DNA of 64,000 nucleotides from a virus (IMGVR_UViG_3300037859_000002:47212-111211); one strand, 5' to 3'. Positions 1-61,618 are shown, counted from the stretch's first letter. The notes: generated from the letters alone by a model not told the origin. Made by a program: numbers and translations.

Positions 1-90
1 GTAGAATCTGCTGGAGTCGGTCGAGGCGAATTTCATGGCCAGCCGCGCGTAGTTGGCGCGGATGATCAGGCGCGGTCGTGGTTCCGGCAT
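1..90 (-). CDS. small array gene, partial (runs off window)
   Basis: ATG at 90 with AAGGAGA RBS just after hammerhead HH1. Confidence 0.6.
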   Translation of the reverse strand, partial: MPEPRPRLIIRANYARLAMKFASTDSSRFY

Positions 91-104
91 GGCCGGTCTC
101 CTTT

Positions 105-167
105 GCGCTTTCGCCCGCCCATGCTGGGGCGGGCTCGTCAGTCCCCGCCACATGGCGGGGCGAGCGC
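105..167 (-). ncRNA. hammerhead ribozyme HH1, type III
   Basis: GCGCUC / stem I CCCCGCC-GGCGGGG / CUGACGA / stem II GCCCGCCC-GGGCGGGC / GAAA GCGC; triplet CUC. Confidence 0.9.
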
Positions 168-186
168 GACCGGGCGCTGGGCCCGG

Positions 187-699
187 TCACCAGTCTTCGG
201 CCAGGCTCTCATAGAGCCGGCCCGCTTCGTCGTATTCATGGACGGCGTGCCATTCGACCATCGCCAGTCGCTGGGGCAGCTCGGCGAATTTGAGATGCTT
301 GGCCCGGTCCGGCCACGAGAGCGTCGACCACCGGGCGGCAAGCCACCGGTCGACCTGCTCGCCCCAGTCCTCGCACAGACAGCCGTAGTTCTCGAGCTGC
401 TCGTGCAGCTCGAGGAGCGTGTCCATCGTGCCGTCCTGGCCCTCGTGGATGGCCAGGATTTCGATCTGTTGATCGATCTGGGGGAGGCCCAGCTCAGCGG
501 CGGTGAAGACCTTGCTGCTCGCGTTGTCGGGCCAGCCGAAGACGGAGAGCAGCATTCCCCAGTCGGCCTGGGCCCTGGGGCCATCGCTCGGGTTCCACCA
601 GCCGACGCCGAGCCAGGCCCCGAAGGGCGCGGGCAGACGGCGGCGGTCGAGCGGCGCGATCGAGCCGATGGCGATGGCGCGCATCATGTCGTTCGACAT
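187..699 (-). CDS. hypothetical protein
   Basis: 170-aa ORF bounded by HH2 and HH1, with RBS. Confidence 0.75.
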   Translation of the reverse strand: MSNDMMRAIAIGSIAPLDRRRLPAPFGAWLGVGWWNPSDGPRAQADWGMLLSVFGWPDNASSKVFTAAELGLPQIDQQIEILAIHEGQDGTMDTLLELHEQLENYGCLCEDWGEQVDRWLAARWSTLSWPDRAKHLKFAELPQRLAMVEWHAVHEYDEAGRLYESLAEDW

Positions 700-708
700 G
701 GTGTGTGT

Positions 709-765
709 TTCCCTTTCGCCGCTACTGGCGGCTCTTCAGGCCCCACACTCTGTGGGGTCGAGGAA
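709..765 (-). ncRNA. hammerhead ribozyme HH2, type III
   Basis: UUCCUC / CCCCACA-UGUGGGG / CUGAAGA / GCCGC-GCGGC / GAAA GGGAA. Confidence 0.9.
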
Positions 766-794
766 GCCCCCGCCACAGGGGCGGGGGCGCAGGT

Positions 795-1220
795 TCAGGC
801 GCGCGACTTGATCGGGATCGTGGTCACCGTGGCCGAACCCTTGTGGTCGACGGCGATGACCTGGATCGGCGGTACCGCGACGGGCCCTTCGTGCCAGGCG
901 ACGAGCGGCGCGAGCTCCTCGAGTGAGGAGCGCGCGTCGGTCCAGTCCTCGGGCGGGTCGTTGCCGACAAGGATGCCGGTGCCGACCAGGGTGCCCGTCG
1001 TCACCGACGGGATCCGGAAGGCCGGGGCCCTGGGGAACTTGAGCAGCCCTTCGTCGTCGACGAGCAGGATGTCCCCGTTGGGGAGCCTGCCGCCGACGCA
1101 GAAGAACCCGTTGAGCGTGGCGCGCGCCCAGCGGCCGAACTCGGCGATCTGGTCGCGCGCGTGGGGTGCCCGCTCTTCGCGGATCTCACGCTTGGCGGGG
1201 TCGATGATCAGGACTCTCAT
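795..1220 (-). CDS. DUF3846-like phage protein
   Basis: MRVLIIDP start after GAGGA RBS; DILLVDDEGLLK and LVGTGILVG motifs (family recalled from memory). Confidence 0.6.
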   Translation of the reverse strand: MRVLIIDPAKREIREERAPHARDQIAEFGRWARATLNGFFCVGGRLPNGDILLVDDEGLLKFPRAPAFRIPSVTTGTLVGTGILVGNDPPEDWTDARSSLEELAPLVAWHEGPVAVPPIQVIAVDHKGSATVTTIPIKSRA

Positions 1221-1229
1221 GTGGGTCGT

Positions 1230-1299
1230 GTTCCTCTTCAGTGCCACCCTGATTGGTGGCAGACCCACCCTGGCGTGGGGCCAGGGTGGTTTCGGATCA
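1230..1299 (-). ncRNA. hammerhead ribozyme HH3, type II
   Basis: UGAUCC GAAA / stem III CACCCUGGC-GCCAGGGUG / GUC / UGCCACC-GGUGGCA / CUGAAGA GGAAC. Confidence 0.9.
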
Positions 1300-1539
1300 G
1301 GCTGGTCGCAGACTGACGACCTTGCCGCCCGAGGTGTTCATGACGCGTCGGGCCAGCAGTTCCTGGCGGCGTTCGTGGGTGAGCCCCGCGAGGGGCAGGG
1401 CCACGATCAGCAGGGCCAGCATTGGCAGCGCCCCGGCCGCGGCCGCGATGGGCACGAGCCTGTCGATGGCGTAGCCGATGGCCAGGCCGATGCCGATTTC
1501 GCCGGCAAAGAGCAGCCGTTCGAGCGTCGGTTCTTCCAT
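1297..1539 (-). CDS. small membrane protein
   Basis: 80 aa with two hydrophobic segments; bounded by HH4 and HH3. Confidence 0.7.
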   Translation of the reverse strand: MEEPTLERLLFAGEIGIGLAIGYAIDRLVPIAAAAGALPMLALLIVALPLAGLTHERRQELLARRVMNTSGGKVVSLRPA

Positions 1540-1545
1540 GGGAGT

Positions 1546-1616
1546 TGATCCTCTTCAGCGCCACCTTGATTGGTGGCCGACGCGCCCCGGCCATGGGCCA
1601 GGGCGGTTTCGGATCA
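1546..1616 (-). ncRNA. hammerhead ribozyme HH4, type II (identical to HH20)
   Basis: UGAUCC GAAA...GUC G GCCACC-GGUGGC G CUGAAGA GGAUCA; perfect 6-bp stem II. Confidence 0.92.
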
Positions 1617-1973
1617 GGCGGGTCGGTCAGGATGGTAGTCGAGCGCGCGCTTCAGCCGTGCGACCAGCGTACGTGGCTTGCTCTCGAGGCCGAACAGCGA
1701 CTCGGACACCTGCTTTGTGATGCCAAAGAACACGGGTCCGATGGACTCGCTGCGGACTTCCTGTTCCCCGACAAAGGGGAACAACATGCGCCCGTCGTCG
1801 AACAGGTGGCGCAGCGTCAGTCCCTCGTTCTGCATCTCGGGCGTCATGGCCGCGTGGCCGATGATGCACCCGGGGCTGCCACAGAAGTCGGTCCAGCGGG
1901 TCATCACCAGCTGATCGGGCGGAATGCTCGCCGCCAGGTCGGTGACGAAGGCCAGCCTCTCGTAGGGTGTCAT
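1614..1973 (-). CDS. CGxxxCIxGH family protein (paralogue 1)
   Basis: CGSPGCIIGH..PEMQNEGL; similar to 2617-2997 and 62482-62865. Confidence 0.75.
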   Translation of the reverse strand: MTPYERLAFVTDLAASIPPDQLVMTRWTDFCGSPGCIIGHAAMTPEMQNEGLTLRHLFDDGRMLFPFVGEQEVRSESIGPVFFGITKQVSESLFGLESKPRTLVARLKRALDYHPDRPA

Positions 1974-1980
1974 GCGCGTG

Positions 1981-2051
1981 GTTCCTCTTCAGGCCCGCGG
2001 GATTGCGGGCAGAGCGGCCCCGCCGCGGTGCGACGGGGTGCTTTCGGATCA
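1981..2051 (-). ncRNA. hammerhead ribozyme HH5, type II
   Basis: UGAUCC GAAA GC...GCUC U GCCCGC-GCGGGC CUGAAGA GGAAC; one extra U after the cleavage triplet. Confidence 0.85.
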
Positions 2052-2252
2052 GTCTTCGGGAGGCGCCCTCACCACGGGATACGGGTAGCCCAGCGCGGTC
2101 ATGACCCGTTCGTGGATCTCGCACGCGTGGTCCCGGTCTTCCTCGTTCCAGGTGGGGCGGCCCTGCCGGCGGCGCCGGCGGTGGGCCGCGTCGGTGCCCG
2201 CCGCGTGGGCGAGCCCGAGGGCCTCCTGGTAGCTGTCAGCGCGGATGGGCAT
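2049..2252 (-). CDS. hypothetical protein
   Basis: short ORF overlapping its upstream gene and ending in HH5; start uncertain. Confidence 0.6.
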   Translation of the reverse strand: MPIRADSYQEALGLAHAAGTDAAHRRRRRQGRPTWNEEDRDHACEIHERVMTALGYPYPVVRAPPED

Positions 2253-2541
2253 CGACGCCCTCGCCGTTGACGGCGTGGCCCACCAGGGTGCCGTAGCGGC
2301 GCCTGGTCGCGTGGGCCATCATGGCCAGGGCTTCGCGCACGCGGCGGGCATCGGCCGCGATCGACAGGAGCTCCGTTTCGGGCACCTGTTCGACCCCCTC
2401 GGGAAAGCGTTGCTGGATCTGCTCGGCGATGTCCTGCACGAGCCTGCAGCAGGCTTTCATCTGGGTGGCCACGGCGTTGCCCGAGGGCATGGAGTCGAGC
2501 GCGAGCGTGAGCCAGTCGTCGGGCAGTTGGTGTTGAGGCAT
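2236..2541 (-). CDS. hypothetical protein
   Basis: 101-aa ORF; RBS lies in HH6. Confidence 0.7.
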   Translation of the reverse strand: MPQHQLPDDWLTLALDSMPSGNAVATQMKACCRLVQDIAEQIQQRFPEGVEQVPETELLSIAADARRVREALAMMAHATRRRYGTLVGHAVNGEGVDAHPR

Positions 2542-2546
2542 CTGGT

Positions 2547-2619
2547 TGATCCTCTTCAGTGCCGGCGATGGTGCCGGCCGAGCGTCCCCGCCGCGATGCG
2601 ACGGGGCGCTTTCGGATCA
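2547..2619 (-). ncRNA. hammerhead ribozyme HH6, type II
   Basis: UGAUCC GAAA GCG..CGCUC G GCCGGC-GCCGGC A CUGAAGA GGAUCA. Confidence 0.92.
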
Positions 2620-2997
2620 GGTTGTGACCGGCTCTTTCAAAAGCCGGTCGATCAGGGCCAGCTGCCGGTCCTTGGTCTGGTGCCGGGGCCGGGCATCATC
2701 GGAATAGAACAGCACGGTCCCGGCGTCGTTGCTGATGCCGAAGAACTCGGACAGGCCGATGTTGCCGACGGGGTTGCCGTTGACGGTCGGCGAAGGCCAG
2801 GGGCCATCGGTCAGCTCCAGGCCCTCGGCCTGGAGGACCGGATCCTGGGCACCGTGGCCCGCGATGCACGCGGTGGTGCCGCACTGTGAAACCCAGGCGC
2901 TCATGTGGATTGCTTGGGCCGGTGTGTTGGCGATGACCTTGCGCAGGCGGGCCAGCCGCTGTCGCGGCGTCAGGCCAACGGGTTCCGGGTCTGTCAT
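2617..2997 (-). CDS. CGxxxCIxGH family protein (paralogue 2)
   Basis: GLTPRQRLARLR..CGTTACIAGHGAQDPVLQAEGL. Confidence 0.8.
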   Translation of the reverse strand: MTDPEPVGLTPRQRLARLRKVIANTPAQAIHMSAWVSQCGTTACIAGHGAQDPVLQAEGLELTDGPWPSPTVNGNPVGNIGLSEFFGISNDAGTVLFYSDDARPRHQTKDRQLALIDRLLKEPVTT

Positions 2998-3003
2998 TGG
3001 TTT

Positions 3004-3073
3004 GCTCCTCTTCAGGCCCGCGGGATTGCGGGCGACCGCCCCGCCCCGGTGTGGGGCGGGGGGTTTCGTCAGC
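3004..3073 (-). ncRNA. hammerhead ribozyme HH7, type II (weak stem II)
   Basis: GCUGAC GAAA CC..GGUC GCCCGC-GCGGGC CUGAAGA GGAGC. Confidence 0.8.
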
Positions 3074-3248
3074 GCGTCGTGGCCGTTTGCTGGGGCGCCA
3101 TGGTGCGGACCAGTCGCTGGCGCAGGGCCTCGACCCTGTTCCAGGCCGTCCAGTCGGTGGCCTGGCTCTGGGTCGCCACCTGCTGACCGTAACTGGTCAG
3201 CGCCGTGATCAGCGTCAGCAGCTCGTCCTCGTCGAGGGCGATGTTCAT
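3069..3248 (-). CDS. hypothetical protein
   Basis: MNIALDEDELL... ORF with ATGA overlap to the upstream gene. Confidence 0.65.
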   Translation of the reverse strand: MNIALDEDELLTLITALTSYGQQVATQSQATDWTAWNRVEALRQRLVRTMAPQQTATTR

Positions 3249-3631
3249 GCGCGGGGCGCCGCCAGGTAGCGTGCGATCCGAACGGCCGACTGCTCGTCCA
3301 GCCAGTCCAGGAGCTGGGCCTTCATCAGGTCCGCCACCGGGCCATCGTTGAGTTCGGGACGCTGCTCGCGCAGGCTTTCGGCCAAGCGGCGCCACGAGCT
3401 GGGCTGCAGGGTCAGGCCCTGCTCAGCGAGCGCGGCGCGAATGTCCGCGGTGCAAAGCAGGACGTGGCCCAGCCGGACCGCGAGTTCCTCGAGCAGGGCC
3501 CGGCCCTCCTCGATGGTGGGCTCGCGACCGAAGGTCGCGCACCAGATGCGCGCGCAGATTTCGGCGATGTCGGCCGCCCGATCGCGGAGCGTGCGCTCGG
3601 GCGCGGCCTCGAAGACGGATTGTTCCTCCAT
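3245..3631 (-). CDS. hypothetical protein
   Basis: MEEQSVF... start after GAGAGGA RBS at the end of HH8. Confidence 0.7.
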   Translation of the reverse strand: MEEQSVFEAAPERTLRDRAADIAEICARIWCATFGREPTIEEGRALLEELAVRLGHVLLCTADIRAALAEQGLTLQPSSWRRLAESLREQRPELNDGPVADLMKAQLLDWLDEQSAVRIARYLAAPRA

Positions 3632-3643
3632 CGGAGTGGGTCC

Positions 3644-3708
3644 TCTCGTTTCGCGCCCACGAACCGGCGGGCGCTCGTCGGCGCCTCTCACATGAGAGGC
3701 GAACGAGA
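3644..3708 (-). ncRNA. hammerhead ribozyme HH8, type III, CCGACGA core variant
   Basis: UCUCGUU / CGCCUCUC-GAGAGGCG / CCGACGA / GCGCCCGC-GUGGGCGC / GAAA CGAGA. Confidence 0.8.
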
Positions 3709-3738
3709 TACACTTAAATGTGGTGAGCCGGGAGTCAA
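3709..3738 (-). promoter_or_regulatory. putative sigma70-type promoter overlapping a CACAT-N4-GTGTA motif
   Basis: TTGACT, 16 nt, TAAGTG; lies between a terminator-like hairpin and HH8. Confidence 0.45.
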
Positions 3739-3777
3739 ATGGAAAGGCCCCCCACCCGGAAAAGGGTAGGGGGCCTT
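3738..3777 (-). terminator. putative intrinsic terminator
   Basis: AAGGCCCCCTACCC-loop-GGGTGGGGGGCCTT followed by TCCATTT. Confidence 0.5.
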
Positions 3778-3788
3778 GCGCGCGAGGG

Positions 3789-3998
3789 TCAGGCGCGGCG
3801 CATCTGGCGCAGACCCTCGCGGGTCGACCTGGCGCCGCCGCAGATGGCCCGATGGGCCACCGCGGCTGCGGCTCTGGTGCGCCGAAGCATCTCCTGCTCG
3901 TCGAGCTTGATCTCGCCGGTCAGGCTGTCCTGCAGGTCCTGCAGGGTATCGCGGGCCGCGGCCAGCGCATCGCGCACATAATCGGGCTGCTTGGGCAT
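3789..3998 (-). CDS. hypothetical protein
   Basis: MPKQPDYVR... with AGGAG RBS. Confidence 0.7.
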   Translation of the reverse strand: MPKQPDYVRDALAAARDTLQDLQDSLTGEIKLDEQEMLRRTRAAAAVAHRAICGGARSTREGLRQMRRA

Positions 3999-4016
3999 GG
4001 TATGTGCTCCTGGCCC

Positions 4017-4117
4017 CGGCTGCCTCTTCGGCACAGGATGGGGGCCCACATCGCTGTGGATGCACGCCGCGGCTCCTTCCTCGCGGGAGGGGCGCGCGCG
4101 CGCATTTCGATCAGCCG
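4017..4117 (-). ncRNA. hammerhead ribozyme HH9, type II, CCGAAGA core variant
   Basis: CGGCUGAUC GAAA UGCGCGC..GCGUGCAUC CACAG..CUGUG CCGAAGA GGCAGCCG; triplet AUC. Confidence 0.75.
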
Positions 4118-4350
4118 CGCTCGGTGCGCGCGGTCCGGCTCGGATCATCCGGATCTGCGGCTTCGAAGGCGCGGTGGTCATAGGTCGTGGTCTCGCCCTG
4201 CTCGAGGTCCCAGTCGACGCCAAACTCATCATCGGCGGCGATCCTGACCGCCTCTTCGACGGTGCGGGCCATGACGATGCCCGTGTGACAGAGACACTGG
4301 TCGACATAGCGGTGGACCACGAATTCTCGCTCCGGTGGGTCGGCGCTCAT
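4111..4350 (-). CDS. hypothetical acidic protein
   Basis: 79-aa ORF; GGGAGG RBS in HH10. Confidence 0.7.
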   Translation of the reverse strand: MSADPPEREFVVHRYVDQCLCHTGIVMARTVEEAVRIAADDEFGVDWDLEQGETTTYDHRAFEAADPDDPSRTARTERG

Positions 4351-4362
4351 GCGCGCGTTCCT

Positions 4363-4418
4363 CCCTTTCGCCGGCGGCTGGCCGGCTCGTCAGCCCCCAC
4401 CAGGTGGTGGGGAAAGGG
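4363..4418 (-). ncRNA. hammerhead ribozyme HH10, type III
   Basis: CCCUU / UCCCCACC-GGUGGGGG / CUGACGA / GCCGGC-GCCGGC / GAAA GGG. Confidence 0.9.
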
Positions 4419-4442
4419 GCCGCCCCCCGCAGGGGGCGGTCG

Positions 4443-4685
4443 TCAGTCCCGTCGGTCGATCCAGTAGCGCGGCACCCGATGATCGGGTGGGAAGCCGAAG
4501 CTCCCATCCTGCTCGAGGGTGACCACGATGGTCTCGGGGGTCTCGATCGCGACGGTGTCGACCACGACGAGCTCGAACTGGAATGTCGTGTTCGTGCTGT
4601 CGGCGTCGGCGTAGCGGTCGCCCGCGAGGTCGATGACCGACCCCGGTGTGAGGTCGGCCACCCGAACCATTTCGGGCGCGATCAT
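4443..4685 (-). CDS. hypothetical protein
   Basis: MIAPEMVRVADL..., ATGA overlap with upstream gene. Confidence 0.65.
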   Translation of the reverse strand: MIAPEMVRVADLTPGSVIDLAGDRYADADSTNTTFQFELVVVDTVAIETPETIVVTLEQDGSFGFPPDHRVPRYWIDRRD

Positions 4686-4942
4686 CCTGTGCGATCCCAT
4701 CCTCCGGGATGGCCAGGACGTGGGGTGATCATCGTCACCCTGGGGCGTCGGCGCCGCCACTCGTGCAGCGCCAGCAGCCCGTAGAAGGTCGTGGCCGCGG
4801 CGCCTGTCGTCAGCGCCGCGGCCCACATGATCTGCTGCACCGTCGGGTCGTCCTCGAAGATGAGGAACACGCCGGTCGCGGCAAAGATCACGCCGGCGAC
4901 TCCGCTGATGCCCAGCAGGGCAAAGCCGAGAAGTCGGTACAT
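4682..4942 (-). CDS. small membrane protein
   Basis: two hydrophobic helices and a basic tail. Confidence 0.7.
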   Translation of the reverse strand: MYRLLGFALLGISGVAGVIFAATGVFLIFEDDPTVQQIMWAAALTTGAAATTFYGLLALHEWRRRRPRVTMITPRPGHPGGWDRTG

Positions 4943-4950
4943 GGGTCGTT

Positions 4951-5008
4951 CCCTTTCGCCGGCATGCTGGCCGGCTCATCAGTCCGCCCCATCAGGGAGC
5001 GGAAAGGG
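4951..5008 (-). ncRNA. hammerhead ribozyme HH11, type III
   Basis: CCCUU / UCCGC.CCC-GGGGCGGA / CUGAUGA / GCCGGC-GCCGGC / GAAA GGG. Confidence 0.92.
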
Positions 5009-5058
5009 CGACGCGCCCGCCCCAGCCTTGGGGCCAGAGCGGGCGCGCGTCGTTGGTT

Positions 5059-5286
5059 TCAGGCCGCCAGGGCTTCGTCAGAGGGCGGGGTCGCCCTGCT
5101 GGACTTGCGCCACTCGTAGACCGCACCTGCCACGCAGGTGACGGCCATCAGGGCGTTGACCGCGATGTTGAGGCCCGGTACCAACATGGTGCCCGCGCGC
5201 ATCATCGGGAGCCAGGCAATGGCCAGGCCGGTGAAGCCCACCGCCGAAGCGGCGTAGATGCGGGCGTTCATTTTGTTGCTGGTCAT
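5059..5286 (-). CDS. small membrane protein
   Basis: MTSNKMNAR..., two hydrophobic helices. Confidence 0.7.
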   Translation of the reverse strand: MTSNKMNARIYAASAVGFTGLAIAWLPMMRAGTMLVPGLNIAVNALMAVTCVAGAVYEWRKSSRATPPSDEALAA

Positions 5287-5295
5287 GATGTGTTC

Positions 5296-5350
5296 CCCTT
5301 TCGCCGCAGACTGGCGGCTCATCAGGCCCCACACGCTGTGGGGTCGAGGG
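5296..5350 (-). ncRNA. hammerhead ribozyme HH12, type III
   Basis: CCCUC / CCCCACA-UGUGGGG / CUGAUGA / GCCGC-GCGGC / GAAA GGG. Confidence 0.92.
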
Positions 5351-5386
5351 TGGGTGCCCCCACACAGGGGGCACCCAACAGGAAGA

Positions 5387-5614
5387 TCACGCGGCCTGCT
5401 CCAGGGCCTTGTCCTGGGGCTTGCCCAGGTAGCGGGCCGCCACGTTGGCGCCCACGGCGACAACGACGCCCCCGACCGCGATGGCGCCCAAAACGGGCGC
5501 CGTCATCGGAACCAGCGGCAGCAGCAGCACCGCCAACCGGTAGCCCGCCAGACCAGAGGTCAGCAGGCCCGCGGTCTCGGCCACGGCAGCGATCTTCTTC
5601 GTGTTGAAGGTCAT
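5387..5614 (-). CDS. small membrane protein
   Basis: MTFNTKK... with AGGAG RBS and a hydrophobic core. Confidence 0.7.
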   Translation of the reverse strand: MTFNTKKIAAVAETAGLLTSGLAGYRLAVLLLPLVPMTAPVLGAIAVGGVVVAVGANVAARYLGKPQDKALEQAA

Positions 5615-5626
5615 CGGATCGATCTC

Positions 5627-5703
5627 CTGAGTGATGATGCGTTCGCCCCTTGCCAAAGGGGCCTCGTCAGCCGGGCTCATTGGCTACCCGGTCGCACACT
5701 CAG
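5627..5703 (-). ncRNA. hammerhead-like RNA HH13, type III, non-canonical core
   Basis: UGCGA / CCGGG-CCCGG / CUGACGA G / GCCCCUU-AAGGGGC / GAAC GCA; the A15.1-U16.1 pair is replaced by C-G. Confidence 0.6.
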
Positions 5704-5711
5704 AATCGTCG

Positions 5712-5760
5712 TTGACATACCGTATGTGGTGATTCTCCACATATATTCAACCACTTAGGC
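5712..5760. promoter_or_regulatory. divergent promoter/operator region
   Basis: AT-rich; TTGACA (+) and TTGAAT (-); inverted repeat TATGTGG-N7-CCACATA at 5723-5743; lies between divergent modules. Confidence 0.55.
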
Positions 5761-5802
5761 GCAGAAAAGCTCCGAAAATGCACCGAAAATGGTCGATCCC
5801 AC

Positions 5803-6645
5803 ATGCCTAAGGGCCACCCGCCCTCCATCTGGGCCAGCATCCGCGCCGACTATGTCGCAGGCCTGGGCACGACCAACGACCTGGCCCGAACCTATGGCGT
5901 CGACGCCTCGGGCATCCGCAAGCGCCGCATCCTCGAGGCCTGGCCCGAACCGGGCGAACGCATCGTAGACACCGCCCTCTACAGGACCAAATCCAAGCAG
6001 GGTGTGAAACCCGCAGATCAAGCCCCGCGCTCGCCAAAGCAGCAGGCCGGAACACATTTCACACCCGAGGGTGTGAAACCCATGGAACACCCTGGAACAC
6101 CCCCCCGGACGGGCGTGCTCCAGAAGCCCCGAACGCGAGAGCAGGCGCTGCTCATGGCCGCCGAACGCGAGTTCGTCCGAGACCTCGCCATCATCGACGC
6201 CATCGCCCCCAAGGCGGCAGCCCTCATCGAAGACCACCTGGCCCGGACCGCCCAGCTCAAGCAGCACTTCACCCGGCTCCACACCCTCCTGGGCAACCTC
6301 ATCCACGACGACCCCCAGAAGCGCGCGACCGCACAGGACGTGCTCGGCCAGGTGCCGCCCGAAACGGTGCTGAACACGATGCTCAACCTGGCCTCGTCGA
6401 TCCAGCGGCTCGAGCGCCAGTCGCTGCAGCTCGACATGGGGCCCCGGCGCCTCGAGCTCACCGGCAAGGACGGGGCGCCGCTGCCCGCCACCCAGGTCAA
6501 CGTCGGTGTGGGCGTGAAGCTCGACGCCAAGACCATGACGACCGAGCAGCTGGCCGCCCTGGGCTCGGTCCTGGAGGCCGTGGACGGCCAGGCGCCGCGC
6601 ACGGCGCTGAAGCGTCCGCCCCAGGGGCCGATGATTGAGGGCTGA
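5803..6645 (+). CDS. terminase small subunit-like protein
   Basis: N-terminal HTH (WASIRADYVAG..LARTYGV..IRKR), C-terminal ELTGKDGAPL motif, upstream of TerL. Confidence 0.65.
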   Translation: MPKGHPPSIWASIRADYVAGLGTTNDLARTYGVDASGIRKRRILEAWPEPGERIVDTALYRTKSKQGVKPADQAPRSPKQQAGTHFTPEGVKPMEHPGTPPRTGVLQKPRTREQALLMAAEREFVRDLAIIDAIAPKAAALIEDHLARTAQLKQHFTRLHTLLGNLIHDDPQKRATAQDVLGQVPPETVLNTMLNLASSIQRLERQSLQLDMGPRRLELTGKDGAPLPATQVNVGVGVKLDAKTMTTEQLAALGSVLEAVDGQAPRTALKRPPQGPMIEG

Positions 6646-6649
6646 GCAG

Positions 6650-7390
6650 CGCCGGCCTTTCTTCGTGCGTCGGGCCCGTGGTAGAACGCGCGTCGCTACT
6701 GCCGAGGTCACGCTCGGCGTGAGTCCTGCGATGGCCTGGCCAGATCGGGCGGGGCGCTCCCCGCGGACATCGAGCACAGGGCGAACGGTGGAAGTAACGC
6801 CCCTCCAGTAGCCACTTGCACGGCACATCGAAGTGTGAGATACGGTGCGGGCTGCTTGGCGATCAGGCCCGTTACTTTGGAAACTGTAGGTCGTCCGTTC
6901 AAATCGGACCAGCGGTCGCAAGGCTGCTGTAGCTCAGCCTGGTAGAGCAACGGTATGAAACGGACCGCCCTAAATTCCGGCGGCAACTGCTAACCCATCC
7001 GGCCAGGGGTTGTGGCCGGGGACCGAGATGAGTGCCCCGCGAGGGGAGCCAAGCCCCCACAGGGGGCCGCCCGGTTGATCACCGGGCGCTCGGAGGAATT
7101 CAGTTCTGCGGTGGCCGGTACGAAGCGCGAGCAAAGAACCTCGTCGCCCCACGGGCAACCTTACAGTAGGGGCTGGCTACGCCCGGCACACGCAAGTGGG
7201 ATGCCGGCAACGTCGCAAAGCCAGTTCGGCCGCCCGGGACGCCGGGGCGCTCGGCCGACGTGTTGGCCATCGCAGAAGCCAGCTGATTTGGGGTGGTGTT
7301 CTCGGCCCGCATTTCGTGGGCCAAAGCCTTGATAAAACGAGCGTATGTGCTGGTGCCCTTGAGCTGGTCTGGCCATCGCGGAAGCCTTCG
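6650..7390 (+). ncRNA. large structured ncRNA candidate (possibly GOLLD-like)
   Basis: ~740 nt without a credible ORF; many hairpins with GNRA-type loops; internal 17-nt repeat; abuts tRNA-Met; ends approximate. Confidence 0.45.
6883..6954 (+). ncRNA. circularly permuted tRNA-like domain
   Basis: order is anticodon-stem 3' strand, variable loop, T arm, acceptor stem capped by GCAA, D arm, anticodon-stem 5' strand. Confidence 0.75.
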
Positions 7391-7392: not shown

Positions 7393-7469
7393 TGCAGGGT
7401 AGAGCAGCCCGGTAGCTCGTCTGGCTCATAACCAGAAGGTCGCCCGTTCGAATCGGGCCTCTGCAACCA
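7393..7469 (+). tRNA. tRNA-Met (CAT), initiator-like
   Basis: full cloverleaf; GAGCAGCCCGGTAGCTC D arm; CT-CAT-AA loop; TTCGAAT; encoded CCA. Confidence 0.92.
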
Positions 7470-8021: not shown

Positions 8022-8096
8022 GCCCCGCTAGCTCAATGGCAGAGCGCCCCCTTTGTAAGGGGATGGTTGCCGGGTCGAAACCGGCGCGGGGCTCCA
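8022..8096 (+). tRNA. tRNA-Thr (TGT)
   Basis: cloverleaf GCCCCGC...GCGGGGC T CCA; TT-TGT-AA loop; atypical T loop GTCGAAA. Confidence 0.88.
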
Positions 8097-35486: not shown

Positions 35487-38400
35487 ATGGACGTGGCCAG
35501 CCTCTCCTTCTCGATCGACAGCGGCCCGGCGGAACGGGCCATCACCTCGCTCGACCGGCTTCGCTCCTCGGCCGACAGCATGGGCCGCTCAAGCGCCCAG
35601 CTGAACCAGCAGTTCAGCCAGGGGGTGCGCTCGCTCACCGACTACCAGCGCGCGACCCTGCTGTTGGGCGAGACCGCGAGCAAGACGGCCAAGAGCCTGG
35701 ACGACCTGGTGGGCAAGATGGATACCCTGACCAGGGGCAGCGTCTTCTCCGGCGGCTCGGGCATGATGGAGCTGCAGAAGCAGCTCGAGAGCATGAGCCG
35801 CCTGTATGGCCAGTCGGCCGCCTCGGCCGAGAACTTCGTGCGCGCGACCCGCGCGATCGGGCTCTCCGCGGGCGAAACCTCGACGGCGCTCCAACGCATC
35901 ACCCTCGCACTCGAGAACGTCACGGCCGAGGGCCGCCAGGCGCGCTCGGTCCTAGAGCAGTATGGCGTGACCCTGAACGGGCTGGGCCTGCGTGACGCCG
36001 AGAGCGTGCTCCGCAATTTCACCAGCAGCGTTCGGGGTTCGCGCGACAGCCTGCAGCGCACCCGCGACATCCAGATGGTCTTCGGCCCCCTGTCGAGCGA
36101 GAGCGCAGACGCGCTCAGTCGCCAGCGGTTTCTCACCGAGGACCAAAGGCGCCGCGATCTCGAGAGCAACGACGCGAGCCGCCGGGCCGCCGCGGCCCGT
36201 GAGCTGGCTTCTGGGGGCGCCTCCTTGGCCGAGCGCAACCGCGCGAGCCTCGAGGCGCTGCGCTCCGACTTCGGCATGCAGGGCCCCGACCTCGGCCGCA
36301 TGTTCCGCTTCGGCCAGAGCGAGCGCGACGTGCTGCTCTCGCGGCGCAACCAGTACGAGGCCTTCCGGCGCGGCGAGGGCCCGGCCCCGGATGGGCTGCT
36401 CAACATCTACGCCAACCAGGCCACGGACCGGATGTTCGGTGGCATCCGGCGCTGGTACGACAATTTCGCCACCGGGGGCTTCGCCGCCCGCCAGGGTGTG
36501 GCCGGGGCCGCCAGCGACTTCTTCAGCGGTGACGTGGGACCCATCACGGGCGCCTATGCGTATGCGTCGATCACGGCGCGAAATCTGCTGAACATGGGGC
36601 CCAGCGACTATGAGGGCCGGCTGCAGCGCGCGATCGAGGAAAATCGCCTGCCCGAGAGTGCCCGCGACCGCCAGATGCGCCGGCTCAGCCAGGCCCAGTC
36701 CCTTCAGCTGATGGGCGACACCGGCATGGCCGGTCTGGTGGCGGCTGAGAGCGCCAACGAGGAACTGGTCCGCAACTACATCCCCACCGCGACGGGCGCG
36801 GGCATCGCCCTGCCCGACGCCCAGCGGCGCTTCAACCGGATCTACGGCAGCAACGCCTTCCGCGGCTCGGTCGCGGCCGATCCGTCCATCGGTTTCGACT
36901 ACCAGGCGCGCCTGCAGGGCGGCAACCTCGACAGCGTCGGGGCCTTCCAGCGCCGGCTGTTCGCCGCGCAGTACGCCCAGAGCCTGGGCATCAGCCCATC
37001 GGACTTCGATCTCGGCGGCGAGAACCTGTTTACCCAGGGGGAATCCGACGTCTTTGGACGGCTCTTCGCGAGCCAGACCTCGGCGCCGATCCTGCGCCAG
37101 TCCAACACCCAGCGTCGGCTCTCTGAGAATGTCGGGGGTGCCGTGCGCGGCGGCTTTAACCGCGGTGAGCGGGGCGCCGCGATCGAGGACCTACAGACCT
37201 CGGAACTCGCCTACCAGCAGGTGCTCGAGCAGACGGGCGATCGCGTGCGCGCCCTGGCCGTGGCCGAGAACGAACTGGCCCAGGCGCGGGATCGGCGCCG
37301 CACCGCCGCGGTCGCCACGATCGCCCAGATGAAGGACGAGGCCGAGGCCGCCGAGACGCTGGCTCGCGCCCTGGGCGGCTTCCCCGGTTCGCAGGCGGAC
37401 GTTGCGCGCGGCTACCGCGCCCAGCTGGGCATCGAGACCCGCCGGCGCTTCGAGGCCAACCCTCTCGAGGGGACAGAGGACGAGATTCGCCAGCGCCTGG
37501 CGCGTCGGGACACCGGGCAGTTTCTCATCCAGGGCCAGGGCCGGATCTCGGATCTGCGTGGCCAGGCCGAGATCAGTCGCGCCCTGCTCGCGGCCGTGCC
37601 GCGAGGGAGCCTCGCGGTCGAGGACGCCCAGCGCAACGCGAGCATCGACCGGGAAGAGGCCCAGGGCCTGGCCCGGGCTCGCGCCGCCGGCGACGTCGAG
37701 GCCGAGCAGGCCATCCGGTCGTACATCGCCTCGCTGCGCGAGCAGTCTCAAGCCACCGCCGAGGCCGGTCGCGCGGTCGCGACCCTGACGTCCCAGATGC
37801 GCGTCCTCGCCTCGATCGAGACCTCCAACGAGCTCGCGGGCATGAACCAGGGCCAGCAGCAGCGCGAGCAGTTCGTGCTCAACCAGGCGCGCGGCCGCGC
37901 CGGATTGGAGAACGCCACGCCCTCCACGGTGCCGCCCGAAGTGCGCGCCGAGCTCGAGGCCCTCTACGAGGCCCAGAGGCGGCCCGGGAACCGTGTCGCC
38001 ATCGACAACGCGCGTCAGCGTGAGGCCCTGGCCCGCGCCGGGGTCGCCCCCACGGGCGCGGGCGCCGCAGCCGCCAGGGCGCGTGTGGCGCGCCAGTTCG
38101 CGATCGGCACCCAGGGCGAGGATCCGGCCGTTGCCGACGCCAACTACCGGGCCGCCCTGTCCGAAATCGGCTCGGGCGTCGCCGGCTCGGGCGTCCAGGG
38201 GATCTTCCAGACAGAGCAGGACACGCTGGCGCGCGCGCGGCGCACCAATGCGCTGCTCACGCGCGGGCGCGCGGGTGCCGCGATCGAGGGCATCGACGCC
38301 CAGGTGGCCCAGCGCATCGCCCTGGGCGGGGCCGCCGCGGGGCAGGGGCCGGCCCTGCGGGGCGCCCTGCTCGGGAACCTGGTCGAAAGCGAGCGCGGCG

Positions 38401-41669: not shown

Positions 41670-44600
41670 CCAAGCCGTTCGTGCTTGCCGGCGCCGGCGG
41701 TGGTGGCAAGGGCGGCGGCGGCGGCTACGTCGCGCGCGAGGACCCCAACACGCTGCGCTCGAAGTCGACGGCAAAGATCATTGACGTCATCAGCGAGGGC
41801 CCCATCAGGGGCTTCGTCAACGCCGAGCAGAGCATCTACTTCAACGGCGCGCAGCTGAAGGACAGCACCGCGCACTACAACTTCCGCGGCGTCAGCCTGG
41901 CGCTCATGCAGGGCCTGCCCGACCAGGATCCGTGCCCTGGCTTCGAGGCCGTCGAATCAGAGGTTTCGGTCGGTCAGAAGGTCGTGGTCGCGACCCCGGT
42001 CATTCGCAGCTTCACCAAGCCCGAGGCGACGGCCGTGCGGGTGACCGTCAGGATCCCGTCGCTCTACTACAGCACCGACAAGGGCGACCTGATCGGCAAC
42101 GCCGTGAAGTTCGCGATCGAGGTGCGCCGCACCGGCTCGGGCACCTGGTTGCGCCCGGTCGAGGAGACGATCTCCGGCAAGTGTACGAGCGCCTATGACC
42201 GAAACTACCGGATCGAGCTTCCCATGCCTGGTCCCAACTGGGACCTGCGGGTCGTTCGCATCTCGGCCGACAGCGACACCACGCGCTCGCAGACCGACCT
42301 GGTCTTTGCCAGCTACACGCTGATCGTCGATCAGCTGGTTGCCTATGCGGACACCGCCTACGTGGCCCTGGCCGCCGACGCCGAGATCTTCGGCAATCAG
42401 ATCCCCAGCCGCTGGTACGAGATCTACGGGCGCATCATCCAGGTGCCCAACAACTACTACCCAGAGAATTATGACCTGACGTGCCCGCTGCTGGGCACCG
42501 CCGACCTGAGCCCGATGGCCACCTCGGGTGGCGCGGGCGTCTGGGTCCGCTCGACCGAGACGCGCTTCATCGGCGCGGTCACCGATGCCAACGCGCCCTG
42601 GGGCCTGGCCCTGGGCATCGGCGCCCAGCCGGCCGCGGTCGGCACCGCCTGGACCATCGAACAGAAGACCGGGGCCGCCCCCGCGGCGGGCGAAAGCTGG
42701 ACCGCGACCATGTGGGTCAAGCGCCAGGCCGACTGCGGGTTCTACGCCTACCTCTGGCTCGCCGCCGGGATCGGCAACTGCGTGGTCGCCAAATTCAACC
42801 TCAACACCGGGGTCGTCGATACACCGGTGACGAACGGCACGCCCAACCAGACGCTGGTGGCCTCCCAGGTGACCGCGCTGGGCAATGGCTGGTATCGCTG
42901 CAGCGCCCGTTGGCAGTTCTCGGCAACACATACGGATGTGAAGCTGGGGATCTACGGCAGCTTCGGCACCGCCGGGTCGGTCACCGGGGAGTTTCGCTAC
43001 GGGGGCGTCGTCTTCGGCAAGACCTCCCTGCCGGTGCACAACTTCTTCTCGAGCCCGGCGGCCAACACCGTGGGCAAGGGCCTGCCCAGCGCGCGCTACT
43101 ACGACGGCGTCTGGGACGGCGGCTTCAAGAGCGAGTGGACCGATAATCCGGCCTGGGTGCTGCACGACATCCTGACCAACACGCGCTTCGGCCTCGGTGA
43201 CCGGATCGTGCCCAGCCAGGTCGACAAATGGGTGCTCTACGAGGCGGCCAAGCGCAACGACCAGCTGGTGCCAGACGGCTTCGGCGGCTGGGAGCCGCGC
43301 TACACCTTCAACGGCTGGATCACCGACGACGATGACGCCTATCGGGTGGTCGTCGCCATCGCGGCGGCGATGCACGCCATGGTCTTCTGGACCCGCGGCA
43401 CGATCAGCCTTTCCCAGGACGCGCCGCGCGATCCGGTGATGCTGGTCACCAACGCCAACGTGGTGGAGGGCGACTTCCAGTATGAGAGCAGCGCGCTCAA
43501 GGCGCGCCACTCGGCCATCTACACGCAGTGGAACGACCCGACGCTGAACTACCGGGTCGGCACCGACGTCTACGAGGAAGACGGCCTGATCCAGAAATTC
43601 GGTCTGCGCAAGGCCGACATCCGGCCCCTGGGGGTGACCCAACGGGGCCTGGCCCGGCGGCACGGTCGCTACATCGCCTTCACCGAAGCCAATGAGAGCA
43701 AGGTCATCGCCTACAGGGCCGGGCTCGACCACATTGCGATCATGCCCGGCGACGTGGTCTCGGTGCTCGACCGCGACCTGGTGGGCGTGCGCAACGGCGG
43801 TCGCCTCGTGGCCGCGACCACGGGCAGCGTGACCCTCGACGCGCCCACCGAACTCGAGGTCGGTCGCAACTACACCATCAGGGTCGTGATGCCCGACGGT
43901 ACGCTCCAGGAGCGGCCGGTGGTGAACCCGCCGAACATCTACACGGTACTGAGCGTCTCCCCCACCTTTTCGGTGGCACCGGCGCCCAACGCGATCTGGC
44001 AACTGGTCGGCACCGACCTGAAGCCCAAGTCATTCCGGGTGATCTCGAAGGTCCAGGTCGAGCCCCACCTGTTCGAGATCTCGGCCATCAACTACGTGCC
44101 CGAGAAGTGGGACACCATCGAGAACGATGTGGCCTTCGCGCCCGACAGTTGGACCGGGCTGCCGACCGGCTCGCTCAAGCCGCCCACGAATGTCAGCTAC
44201 CTCGACTACATCGGCAGCCGCGGCCTGGCCCCGCTTGCGGGCGTGGCGATCAGCTGGTCGCCCTCGCCGGATCCGCGCACCGCGCTCTACGAAGTCGAGA
44301 TCAGCCGGCCCGAGAACGGTGACATCTACGAGACGCTCGAGAAGACCGCCGGGGTCACATCCGTGGTCGAGAACATCACGGACGTGATCGGCCCATGGCG
44401 CGCCCGGGTGCGGGCCTCCGACGTGCTGGGTCGAAAGAGCAGCTGGGCCGAGCTGGTTTTCGTGCCAGCGGGCTTCAACTTCCTGCCCGACGACGTGCTG
44501 AACTTCCGGGCGGCGCTCAACCGTGGCCGCATCGATCTCTCGTGGGACCCGATCGCGCAGCACGCGGCCGTGCGCTATGACATTCGCTACTCGCCCGTGT

Positions 44601-59786: not shown

Positions 59787-59792
59787 CGGTTT

Positions 59793-59858
59793 CTCCTCAG
59801 CGCCGGTCGATGATGGCCGGCAGAGCCGCACCGGGATCTTCCCGGTGGGCTTTCGTCA
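59793..59858 (-). ncRNA. hammerhead ribozyme HH14, type II (stem II reduced to ~1 bp)
   Basis: UGAC GAAA GCC..GGCUC UGCCGG-CCGGCG CUGAGGA G. Confidence 0.7.
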
Positions 59859-60206
59859 TTCCTTCAGGGGCAGCACGCCGAGTTGCTTCAAAGACTCATA
59901 GGTCGCAAGCCCCCGCGTTGAGCCGTACATGGTCAGGCCCATGGCATCGAGTTTCTCGACGATGGCAAGCACGTGCTGGGCGGCCATCTGTTCTCCCAAT
60001 TTTTTTGTGCTGACGTGGAGCGAGTGCTGCGCGACTCTTTGCCACACGGTGTCACCTGTGTGATCGGTGGGAAAATAGCGCCAACCCTCGCAGACGGTTC
60101 TCAGGGTTTCCTGATCGGCTGCGGCGCGTGGGACCTGGACAGACCAGGTGCCGGAAAAGGGTTCGAAACTGACGTAGTAGGCTCGACTTAGATCAAGTAC
60201 TGTCAT
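59856..60206 (-). CDS. hypothetical protein
   Basis: MTVLDLSR... after GAGGAG RBS. Confidence 0.7.
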   Translation of the reverse strand: MTVLDLSRAYYVSFEPFSGTWSVQVPRAAADQETLRTVCEGWRYFPTDHTGDTVWQRVAQHSLHVSTKKLGEQMAAQHVLAIVEKLDAMGLTMYGSTRGLATYESLKQLGVLPLKE

Positions 60207-60214
60207 CGGATAGC

Positions 60215-60283
60215 TCCTCTTCATGGGGATGATTCCCCGACCGTTCCCCCTGAGTCAAAGCTCAGGGGGCCGGTTTCGGATCA
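60215..60283 (-). ncRNA. hammerhead-like RNA HH15, type II, AUGAAGA core variant
   Basis: UGAUCC GAAA CCG..CGGUC GGGGA-UCCCC AUGAAGA GGA. Confidence 0.7.
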
Positions 60284-60793: not shown

Positions 60794-60799
60794 TGTGGT

Positions 60800-60870
60800 T
60801 GACCTCGTCAGCGCCGGCGATGGTGCCGGCCGAGCGTCCCCGCCGCGATGCGACGGGGCGCTTTCGGTCA
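60800..60870 (-). ncRNA. hammerhead ribozyme HH16, type II (near copy of HH6)
   Basis: UGACC GAAA...CUC G GCCGGC-GCCGGC G CUGACGA GGUCA; compensatory one-pair indel in stem II relative to HH6. Confidence 0.92.
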
Positions 60871-61263: not shown

Positions 61264-61268
61264 GTGGT

Positions 61269-61339
61269 TGACTTCTTCAGGCCGGCGACGATGCCGGCAG
61301 ACACGCCCTGCCCGACGATGGGCAGGGGTGTTTCGGTCA
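61269..61339 (-). ncRNA. hammerhead ribozyme HH17, type II
   Basis: UGACC GAAA CAC..GUGUC U GCCGGC-GCCGGC CUGAAGA AGUCA. Confidence 0.8.
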
Positions 61340-61612: not shown

Positions 61613-61618
61613 GGCTTT

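Follow-up and report, generated by a model that had tools for sequence, protein, structure and literature searches.

This study found 13 hammerhead-shaped elements at the gene junctions of an operon of small genes in an uncultivated phage. The spacers probably carry working hammerhead ribozymes of types II and III that would cut a minus-strand polycistronic RNA at each junction; judged from the sequence, self-processing of this RNA into one- or two-gene mRNAs would be the most economical reading. The window, meaning the whole 64,000-nt stretch analysed, is part of a 111-kb record that IMG/VR classes as a provirus, and portal, head-morphogenesis, tail and terminase genes identify it as phage DNA.

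Results

Genes and elements of the array

The features are listed below in the direction of transcription; all cuts are predicted ones.

5628-5702, minus strand: HH1, type III variant, 5' leader before G1; cut 5692/5691
5614-5387, minus strand: ORF G1
5351-5377, minus strand: GC-rich hairpin ending 5 nt before the HH2 cut
5296-5350, minus strand: HH2, type III, canonical core CUGAUGA, junction G1/G2; cut 5346/5345
5286-5059, minus strand: ORF G2
5009-5049, minus strand: similar GC hairpin, before HH3
4951-5008, minus strand: HH3, type III, canonical, junction G2/G3; cut 5004/5003
4942-4682, minus strand: ORF G3
4685-4443, minus strand: ORF G4
4420-4439, minus strand: similar GC hairpin, before HH4
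4363-4418, minus strand: HH4, type III, canonical, junction G4/G5; cut 4414/4413
4350-4111, minus strand: ORF G5
4019-4114, minus strand: HH5, type II, U4C core (CCGAAGA), long stem III, junction G5/G6; cut 4059/4058
3998-3789, minus strand: ORF G6
3748-3766, minus strand: terminator-like hairpin with U-rich tail, between G6 and G7
3700-3745, minus strand: promoter-like motif (TTGACT ... TCACCACAT ... AAGTGTAT)
3644-3708, minus strand: HH6, type III, U4C core (CCGACGA), leader of G7; cut 3702/3701
3631-3245, minus strand: ORF G7
3248-3069, minus strand: ORF G8
3003-3073, minus strand: HH7, type II, canonical core, weak stem II, junction G8/G9; cut 3034/3033
2997-2617, minus strand: ORF G9
2547-2619, minus strand: HH8, type II, canonical, junction G9/G10; cut 2580/2579
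2541-2236, minus strand: ORF G10
2252-2049, minus strand: ORF G11
1980-2051, minus strand: HH9, type II, canonical core, junction G11/G12; cut 2012/2011
1973-1614, minus strand: ORF G12
1546-1616, minus strand: HH10, type II, canonical, junction G12/G13; cut 1579/1578
1539-1297, minus strand: ORF G13
1229-1299, minus strand: HH11, type II, canonical, junction G13/G14; cut 1262/1261
1220-795, minus strand: ORF G14
766-788, minus strand: similar GC hairpin, before HH12
710-765, minus strand: HH12, type III, canonical, junction G14/G15; cut 760/759
699-187, minus strand: ORF G15
168-188, minus strand: similar GC hairpin, before HH13
105-167, minus strand: HH13, type III, canonical, junction G15/G16; cut 162/161
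start at 90, minus strand: ORF G16, continuing beyond the window

The 15 complete ORFs (G1-G15; 187-5614, minus strand) encode 59-170 aa, have 81-92% G+C at codon position 3 and belong to no confident Pfam or PHROG family. This array and a second one flank a primase-helicase module and are oriented opposite to the structural genes; the other adjoining genes encode an HTH protein and proteins without known function. The position beside the primase-helicase genes and the orientation would fit an early transcript.

Reading the minus strand directly between 105 and 5702 gave seven type III and six type II elements. The canonical core (CUGANGA...GAAA...NUH, with C3 U4 G5 A6 N7 G8 A9 and G12 A13 A14) is complete in 10 of the 13, and the same 10 have the A15.1-U16.1 pair and an H17 that is not G. 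The remaining three are variants that differ at normally conserved positions: U4C in HH5 and HH6, and in HH1 a C15.1-G16.1 pair with a cleavage-site A, so that the cleavage triplet is GGA-like and not NUH. Every non-overlapping junction of the operon carries one element, and the only element-free junctions are three overlapping gene pairs (4685-4682 and 3248-3245, both ATGA, and 2252-2236). The original prediction of 13 minus-strand hammerheads (six type II, seven type III), missing only at overlapping pairs, was thus confirmed in number, type and position. The cuts that it placed at 162/161, 1262/1261 and 1579/1578 would lie exactly 3' of C17 of CUC, GUC and GUC, respectively, and the stems that it described as different in sequence with pairing kept do covary (see below). 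The structural part of its interpretation also stands: the elements are true hammerhead folds, in two topologies, and each non-overlapping junction has one on the coding strand.

HH6 is preceded by the terminator-like hairpin and the promoter-like motif at 3700-3745. Only one other stretch of the record resembles this motif, at about 5715-5770, upstream of HH1. Because a scan with the sigma-70 consensus gave no promoter match, the assignment of the 3700-3745 motif as a promoter is tentative. The hairpin and this second promoter-like motif, at about 3715-3766, suggest that the operon probably comprises two transcription units.

Detection across the record

When the entire 111-kb record was scanned with a strict descriptor, 18 minus-strand matches and one weak plus-strand match came up, against a chance expectation of 1.25 over both strands (mean of 20 block-wise dinucleotide shuffles). 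All of the matches fell within intergenic spacers of minus-strand gene runs. The models built here (R1 and R2) found about 27-28 copies in the record. R2, a covariance model made from only four type III copies, recovered five further copies outside its seed with E values from 9e-12 to 7e-5, including HH3 (47.4 bits, E 3e-10) and HH13 (38.2 bits, E 9e-8); the seed member HH2 scored 77.9 bits. With R1, HH8 scored 84 bits, HH9, which has one additional U between C17 and stem I, 79.7 bits, and HH7 54.2 bits. HH5 was missed by R1, and HH1 by both the strict descriptor and R2.

A scan with the Rfam hammerhead models had been proposed as a check. Hammerhead_II gave 10 matches in the record with E < 0.05, all on the minus strand: nine from the window's two arrays and one from a cluster at record 34-38 kb. 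These matches are sub-threshold, and no window copy reached the gathering score of 37 bits; the best, HH11, scored 31.0 bits (E 0.0035), HH7 22.7 bits and HH10 19 bits. The Rfam type III model matched none of the type III copies of the window.

The second array contains nine copies.

59788-63534, minus strand: second array, seven type II and two type III copies
59788-59860, minus strand: type II
60212-60283, minus strand: type II
60799-60871, minus strand: type II
61268-61340, minus strand: type II
61619-61673, minus strand: type III
61962-62027, minus strand: type II
62414-62484, minus strand: type II
62871-62942, minus strand: type II
63479-63534, minus strand: type III

HH10 is identical to the copy at 62414-62484, and HH8 is nearly the same as that at 60799-60871; the identical and near-identical spacers adjoin the paralogous genes G9, G12 and R4.

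Stems and covariation

Minimum-free-energy folds of the spacers yielded a three-way junction with the hammerhead core, including the unconstrained fold of HH1 and the fold of HH7; for HH6 the z was -3.5. The three helices show compensatory changes. An alignment of type II copies (n = 32, two phages), which had been fitted to the model, has double-sided changes in 19 of 26 pairs and pairing in 79.6% of its cells; slid alignments gave 34-51% paired, and none of 500 shuffles matched the observed values. In stem II, UGAUCC/GGAUCA (the 6-bp stem of HH8), UGACC/GGUCA, UUCUCC/GGAGAA and UCUCUC/GAGAGA replace one another. In several copies stem II or III has only 1-4 bp, which counts against working ribozymes. 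An AUC motif is frequent in loop I, as is a CAG motif in loop II of type III copies; a search of stems I and II for the loop-loop or pseudoknot contact that permits fast cleavage at cellular Mg2+ gave no pairing partner consistent across copies.

Translation signals and product ends

A single helix connects the two cleavage products: stem II in type II copies, stem III in type III copies. In most copies it holds the Shine-Dalgarno sequence of the next gene (GAGGA, or AGGG paired to CCCU), as in HH2, where the 3' strand of stem III (AGGG) serves G2. In every type II copy it also holds the UGA stop of the upstream gene; HH5, for example, has the stop of G5 inside the 5' strand of stem II, and G6 has its own Shine-Dalgarno sequence farther downstream. 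GAAA is preceded by a stop codon, 1-3 nt away, in every type II copy of the record and in many copies of the related phage G001, and a start codon follows the core by 7-14 nt in 14 of 16 type II copies. Mere genome compaction could account for this overlap of translation signals and ribozyme.

In both topologies the upstream RNA terminates in a strong GC hairpin 0-6 nt from the predicted cut, and the downstream RNA begins directly at the stem I hairpin. The terminal hairpin is stem III itself in type II copies and a separate hairpin just before the ribozyme in type III copies. Folds of the 55 nt ending at H17 placed such a hairpin before each intercistronic type III copy, and it is absent from the leader copies HH1 and HH6. 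We propose that these hairpins may be protective 3' ends of the upstream product.

A related phage

As the original prediction had proposed, the same search was made in a relative, and the array layout was found at syntenic positions in G001 (93 kb), whose structural and replication genes are syntenic and 26-61% identical. G001 has at least 23 hammerhead copies, all on the minus strand (17 matched by R1, two by R2 and four more by Rfam), and two score above the Rfam gathering cut-off (42.7 and 41.4 bits). By tblastn, none of the 26 array ORFs matched G001. Position 3 of the core in its 21 type II copies is C in four, A in 11 and U in six. By analogy with classical mutagenesis, A3 or U3 should slow or abolish cleavage; one U3 copy carries the known compensating A8.

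Discussion

Two transcripts, probably starting near 5760 and 3735, may be cut 3' of H17 at every junction to yield one- or two-gene mRNAs. The upstream product would then end in a 2',3'-cyclic phosphate beside a GC hairpin, and in the downstream product the stem I hairpin would directly follow the 5'-OH end. After cleavage the short product-joining helix (3-6 bp) would melt and free the ribosome-binding site. The effect of a 5'-OH on RNA stability depends on the host; Bacillus RNase J1, for instance, degrades the 5'-OH product of glmS.

The elements could instead act mainly as DNA, as repeated boundaries that promote the shuffling or exchange of cassettes, with ribozyme activity secondary or vestigial. 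PeSL of T4-type phages, which are mobile promoter and stem-loop cassettes without catalytic RNA, are comparable as repeated structured regulatory spacers that separate variable small genes where phage genomes are hyperplastic; the likeness to integron attC sites is looser. The persistence of the spacers in G001 beside wholly different cargo genes agrees with a role in exchange, as do the identical and near-identical copies in the two arrays, with their paralogous neighbours. However, most of the sequence conservation falls in the catalytic core blocks and the stems vary by compensatory substitutions, which indicates that RNA structure, and not DNA identity, is under selection. Moreover, the elements lie strictly on the coding strand, and neither an attC-type single bulged hairpin with R/L boxes nor an integron integrase adjoining the arrays was found. 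We consider a mainly DNA-level role unlikely; it is compatible with self-cleavage and could be true in addition. An integron attC cassette array as such was rejected, given the three-way-junction folds of the spacers and their primase-helicase, HTH and functionally unassigned neighbours.

If cleavage has been lost or is slow, the spacers may serve as stabilisers, translational couplers, or sites for RNases or RNA-binding proteins of the host or the phage. Core variants are indeed frequent (3/13 here, 17/21 type II copies in G001), many helices beside the core are very short, and every window copy falls below the Rfam threshold. Yet such a loss or slowing is doubtful: a full canonical core combined with A15.1-U16.1 and an allowed H17 in 10 of 13 copies is unexpected without selection for catalysis, one G001 copy combines U3 with the compensating A8, and natural phage hammerheads with variant cores and stems II of 1-2 bp do cleave (PMC3088659). 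Less probable still is that units cut at both ends are re-joined, by hammerhead self-ligation or an RtcB-type ligase, into circular single-gene RNAs or mobile RNA cassettes. An excised type II unit would have stem I and core at its 5' end and GAAA, stem III and UH>p at its 3' end, and interchangeable UGAUCC/GGAUCA strands would bring these ends together; within the record, stem II strands can be swapped between neighbours (mean 2.9 bp chimeric, 3.6 bp native). In G001, however, stems II that are natively 6-7 bp long form only 1-2 bp with the neighbouring copy, and mixed type II and type III flanks are unable to re-form one ribozyme. Perreault et al. sought circular or spliced products and found none (PMC3088659). 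G001 lacks RtcB, and the RtcB-like ORF at the record's left end (90 bits), which could be taken as support, adjoins a Ro60/Y-RNA module. RtcB is commonly associated with such modules anyway. Re-joining, if true, would give circular, exonuclease-resistant mRNAs, and the circles could serve as exchangeable RNA cassettes.

Self-cleavage at the junctions, the reading favoured here, has parallels elsewhere. In the early polycistronic mRNA of T7, RNase III, a host protein enzyme, cuts structured intercistronic sites to give stable mRNAs with hairpin ends, leaving 5'-phosphate and 3'-OH; here, by contrast, cleavage would be by the RNA itself and would produce 5'-OH and cyclic-phosphate ends. Engineered insulators and aptazymes (RiboJ-type parts, hammerhead aptazymes) are synthetic single parts in which a hammerhead upstream of the ribosome-binding site, by cleaving, strips off the upstream context or releases a Shine-Dalgarno sequence from pairing, whereas the phage arrays would be a natural, operon-wide use, if the ribozymes work as proposed. 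The window copies share core blocks, three-way junction and topology with Rfam Hammerhead_II (RF02276) and Hammerhead_3 (RF00008), but they score only 19-31 bits, have long, GC-rich stems and show no evident loop I pseudoknot. In Desulfovibrio, cleavage by type II hammerheads takes place in vivo (PMC8782182). Fungal and plant RNA viruses have self-cleaving ribozymes in their UTRs that are needed for translation initiation (PMC13725137); there too cleavage just upstream of an ORF is tied to its translation, although those systems are eukaryotic, cap-independent and encoded by RNA genomes, and ours is a DNA-phage operon.

The closest precedent is that of Perreault et al. 2011 (PLoS Comput Biol, PMC3088659), who described multiple hammerheads flanking single genes in prophages and proposed the same processing; three prophage arrays of three ribozymes each cleave co-transcriptionally in vitro, and one cleaves in E. 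coli. The claim that no comparable system was known is therefore too strong, and the window array is a very large and clean instance of an arrangement on record since 2011 and no new type of system. As in that layout, several coding-strand hammerheads of types II and III flank same-direction phage genes of varying identity, and weak stems II and core variants occur there too (PMC3088659). Whereas the arrays tested in 2011 had three ribozymes, 13 occur here in 5.6 kb, with a 14th just beyond the window, and every non-overlapping junction has one, unlike in those arrays. The overlap with Shine-Dalgarno sequences and stop codons and the uniform hairpin-capped ends are not mentioned in that paper (PMC3088659).

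In sum, each cistron would acquire defined, hairpin-protected ends, and the expression of the small accessory genes may be insulated from that of their neighbours, much as with engineered ribozyme insulators. Considering that the punctuation is kept in G001 while the cargo genes are all different, the ribozyme spacer looks like an expression frame that can be used again as the genes of this accessory region rapidly change.

Distribution of the hammerhead elements

The provirus record (IMG/VR; 111,211 bp, 68% G+C), of which the window covers bases 47212-111211, probably derives from an algae-associated metagenome. Genes for portal, head-morphogenesis, minor-tail and terminase proteins mark it as a tailed phage, and the portal shares 43% identity with its counterpart in Brevundimonas phages. 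At window 1-5800, 16 consecutive small ORFs (G1-G16) all lie on the minus strand. Direct reading of this strand revealed 13 hammerhead-shaped elements, seven of type III and six of type II, at every non-overlapping junction and in the leaders of G1 and G7. Three junctions have none, and at each of these the two genes overlap (by ATGA at 4685-4682 and at 3248-3245, and by 17 nt at 2252-2236), as the original prediction had held. The three cut sites that it had named each fall exactly 3' of C17.

Hammerhead elements of the left array (window coordinates unless stated)
5628-5702, minus strand, type III, stem III open
5296-5350, minus strand, type III, stem III open
4951-5008, minus strand, type III, stem III open
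4363-4418, minus strand, type III, stem III open
4019-4114, minus strand, type II, stem II open
3644-3708, minus strand, type III, stem III open
3003-3073, minus strand, type II, stem II open
2547-2619, minus strand, type II, stem II open
1980-2051, minus strand, type II, stem II open
1546-1616, minus strand, type II, stem II open
1229-1299, minus strand, type II, stem II open
710-765, minus strand, type III, stem III open
105-167, minus strand, type III, stem III open
Record 46459-46522, just left of the window, after the G16 stop codon, fourteenth copy, type III with U3

The whole record holds about 27-28 copies (about 16 type II and about 12 type III), clustered at three places: the left array, the right array (window 59788-63534), and record 34-38 kb. 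Left of the window, a non-coding RNA-like stretch of about 450 nt (record 45990-46460, minus strand) separates the fourteenth hammerhead from a strong intrinsic terminator, which consists of a G/C stem and a U run after it. This stretch might be a ribozyme-released non-coding RNA.

Chance tests and model searches

A strict descriptor (core heptamer, GAAA, U16.1, an H17 other than G, a pair of closed hairpins and a single open helix) matched, in the whole record, 18 minus-strand elements and one weak plus-strand element, against a mean of 1.25 matches, both strands summed, in 20 block-wise dinucleotide shuffles. Every match is in a spacer between genes that run on the minus strand; the 53-kb structural module on the plus strand is free of them. 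The Rfam scan suggested by the original prediction gave a divided answer: the Hammerhead_II model had 10 matches in the record at E < 0.05, all on the minus strand (nine in the window's two arrays and one in the record 34-38 kb cluster), but none of them reached the gathering score (best 31.0 bits, cut-off 37), no hammerhead was called at that score in the window, and the type III model had zero matches in the record. Our own type III covariance model (R2), seeded with four type III copies only, recovered five non-seed copies at E-values, which are rough for both of our models, of 9e-12 to 7e-5. The type II model (R1), seeded with 14 type II copies, found one additional copy at record 36036-36107; the copies it scores best are its own seed. 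The shuffles, the strand bias and the cross-validation reject chance or artefact as the origin of the elements.

Related phages and gene cargo

A related record, G001 (IMG/VR 3300012974_000540, 93 kb), was reached via the capsid-region protein phrog_13692 (59% identity). Its structural and primase-helicase genes, and some others, are syntenic with those of the present record and 26-61% identical to them. In the search of related phages that the original prediction had called for, G001 gave 17 matches to R1, two to R2, and four further Rfam Hammerhead_II matches. Every one is on the minus strand, within 22.4-36.7 kb or 44.5-46.6 kb, positions corresponding to the arrays that flank the primase-helicase module here. 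Two of the four further matches exceed the Hammerhead_II gathering score (42.7 and 41.4 bits). In a third record, 3300010885_052266 (100.9 kb, with terminal repeats), no fewer than four type II and two type III copies are present. Among GenBank phages, the one with the closest portal, Brevundimonas phage Strzyga, gave no descriptor match in its first 50 kb, and an exact-pattern scan of viral contigs for TGATCCGAAA...CTGANGAGGA returned mostly chance matches and no arrays.

The genes between the hammerheads behave differently from the hammerheads themselves. None of the window's 26 array ORFs matched G001 (tblastn, E <= 0.01); between these two phages the cargo is fully turned over while the punctuation is kept. 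Megablast of window 1-6000 against GenBank phages gave zero matches, a related-locus search found no relatives of the single small proteins G15 and G9, and G1-G16 have no confident family, with only weak matches to DUF6332, DUF3846 and a sliding-clamp domain. A paralogous G9-type family of about 120 aa, without a Pfam family and with an invariant C-G-x-x-x-C-x-x-G motif, has at least four copies in the record, each with hammerheads on its flanks. Of 1.8 billion representative proteins, 168 are distantly related to the family. Its copies lie at:

Window 2617-2997, minus strand, G9-type gene
Window 1614-1973, minus strand, G9-type gene
Window 62482-62865, minus strand, G9-type gene
L026 (a piece of this record), about 4260-4700, minus strand, G9-type gene

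At 33 viral loci with G9 homologues, only chance-level matches and no arrays were found, and a tie between the array and this family was therefore rejected. In a plus-strand island between hammerhead clusters, a 318-aa protein is encoded (L026:12230-13186, record 42230-43186) that has no Pfam match at E <= 0.001. Beyond the promoter end of the left array, a sub-threshold YrlA (Y RNA-like) match of 34.6 bits with a tRNA-like module adjoins two tRNA genes; the G001 match is stronger (56 bits, L082:12060-12179, in a piece of G001). Both phages encode a Ro60/TROVE protein, here at record 5904-7277.

Window 6865-6970, 7393-7466 and 8022-8093, plus strand, YrlA match, tRNA-like module and tRNA neighbourhood
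G000:C1:1-1407 (very left edge of this record), plus strand, RtcB-like RNA ligase ORF, 90 bits
G000:C1:4631-4828 (left of the window), minus strand, short second RtcB C-terminal fragment

Core and helix conservation

In the left array, 10 of the 13 copies have a fully canonical core. The variants are U4C in HH5 (4019-4114) and HH6 (3644-3708) and a C15.1-G16.1 pair in HH1 (5628-5702); of these, HH1 and HH6 stand in the leaders. When folded without constraints, the odd copies retain the three-way junction. Since MAFFT alignments of the copies were out of structural register, pairs were counted on a model-fitted alignment (A6) of 32 type II copies from this phage and its relative. Both sides had changed in 19 of 26 stem pairs (78 cells) and 79.6% of cells were paired, counts that lean towards structure, given that the model had shaped the alignment. 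None of 500 shuffles reached the observed pairing values, and shifting the partner by 1-3 columns lowered pairing to 34-51%. Single cases that the eye can pick out are G-C to A-U in stem III (1546-1616 versus 1229-1299), GCCGGC/GCCGGC to GCCCGC/GCGGGC in stem I, and UGAUCC/GGAUCA to UGACC/GGUCA in stem II. A search by eye found no consistent partner for a loop I pseudoknot with either stem II flank.

Changes at C3 strongly lower cleavage in classical mutagenesis. Among the type II copies of G001 (n=21), C3 is present in four, A3 in 11 and U3 in six; in this record, A3 occurs in three (window 62871-62942 and 60212-60283, and L026:6036-6107). Two copies with C3 replaced (AUGANGA or UUGANGA) still exceed the Rfam Hammerhead_II threshold. 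The C3-variant copies may be slow, have different ion needs, or be inactive, and in the A3 variant, which recurs naturally, kinetics or metal dependence may be altered. One G001 U3 copy bears a compensating A8, a covariation already known in nature (Perreault et al. 2011, PMC3088659). The natural core variants named in the available text of that study do not include A3 opposite G8. A natural A6C phage variant favours Mn2+ (PMC7151607). Stem II of G001 is frequently 1-2 bp, within the range reported for natural type II hammerheads that are active (PMC3088659).

Translation signals and predicted RNA ends

Ribozyme helices and translation signals overlap in most copies. In all type II copies of the record, the upstream gene ends at an in-frame UGA located 1-3 nt ahead of GAAA, and therefore within the 5' strand of stem II. 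The start codon follows 7-14 nt past the core in 14 of 16 type II copies, with G8-A9 and the first stem II bases (GAGGA) forming the Shine-Dalgarno sequence. Of 11 type III copies, 8 use the 3' strand of stem III for this purpose (AGGG, pairing with CCCU). The helix bearing these signals is the sole helix joining the two cleavage products. All intercistronic type III copies are preceded by a GC hairpin of 9-17 bp ending 0-6 nt before the cut, which is absent from the two leader copies, while in type II copies stem III (10-13 bp) itself ends one nucleotide before the cut. The placement of these hairpins therefore indicates the same product end design in both topologies. After cleavage, the upstream mRNA of either topology would end in a strong hairpin and a cyclic phosphate, and the 5'-OH at the start of the downstream mRNA would abut the stem I hairpin. 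The layout of signals and hairpins is plain in the sequence; these features may stabilise the products, and cleavage may release the ribosome-binding site.

The variant-core leader hammerheads each lie immediately downstream of a promoter-like motif, and no other such motif occurs in the record:

Window about 5715-5770, minus strand, promoter look-alike (TTGAnT ... TCACCACAT ...)
Window about 3700-3745, minus strand, promoter look-alike of the same form

A sigma-70 consensus scan called no promoter, including at these two motifs. Both right-array A3 copies (window 62883-62863 and 60224-60204, minus strand) have their core AUG (A3-U4-G5) in frame with the start codon of the downstream gene, 18 nt upstream of it; the two copies share the same 24 nt, and the in-frame AUG therefore counts as a single event. 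In the one G001 copy checked, the corresponding AUG is out of frame.

Discussion

The elements are best read as hammerhead ribozymes that punctuate an operon. In addition to being ribozymes, they could possibly serve as DNA-level cassette-boundary repeats of the PeSL-like kind, but the conserved core and the covarying stems point to selection on RNA. That they are structured spacers without catalytic function is unlikely, as ten fully canonical cores are hard to reconcile with such a role. An integron attC array fits neither the folds nor the neighbouring genes.

Circularisation of the excised units would be a different fate for the cleaved RNA. RtcB joins exactly the ends that hammerheads make, and an RtcB-like ORF lies at the record's left end; Ro60/TROVE and Y-RNA-like genes are present in both phages. 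We nevertheless consider circles very improbable: RtcB is absent from G001, the native stem II pairs of G001 do not fit neighbouring copies, and a chimeric stem II test gave nothing beyond the effect of the shared stop and Shine-Dalgarno sequences. Moreover, no circles were found in earlier work (Perreault et al. 2011, PMC3088659).

Ribozyme punctuation itself has precedents. According to that study, individual genes or short gene blocks in prophages are often flanked by multiple hammerheads, and three 3-ribozyme arrays were shown to cleave in vitro and one in E. coli. The overlap with Shine-Dalgarno sequences and stop codons, present here, is unmentioned in its text. The role of bacterial and phage hammerheads is still considered largely elusive (2019 review, PMC6765202). 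Large arrays are not confined to this record, as G001 shows. The present array is thus a large, clean example of a known layout and no new class of system. Added here are one uniform end design for both topologies, translation signals embedded in the ribozymes, variant cores in the leaders, and conserved punctuation set against a cargo that has turned over.

With both topologies side by side, canonical and variant cores in one operon, and a relative that retains the punctuation without the same genes, this provirus of about 27 copies is a compact test bed for asking whether ribozyme cleavage sets mRNA ends and stability, whether it releases a sequestered ribosome-binding site, and whether it insulates genes acquired by horizontal transfer from their surroundings. 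Natural templates for ribozyme insulators also come from this layout.
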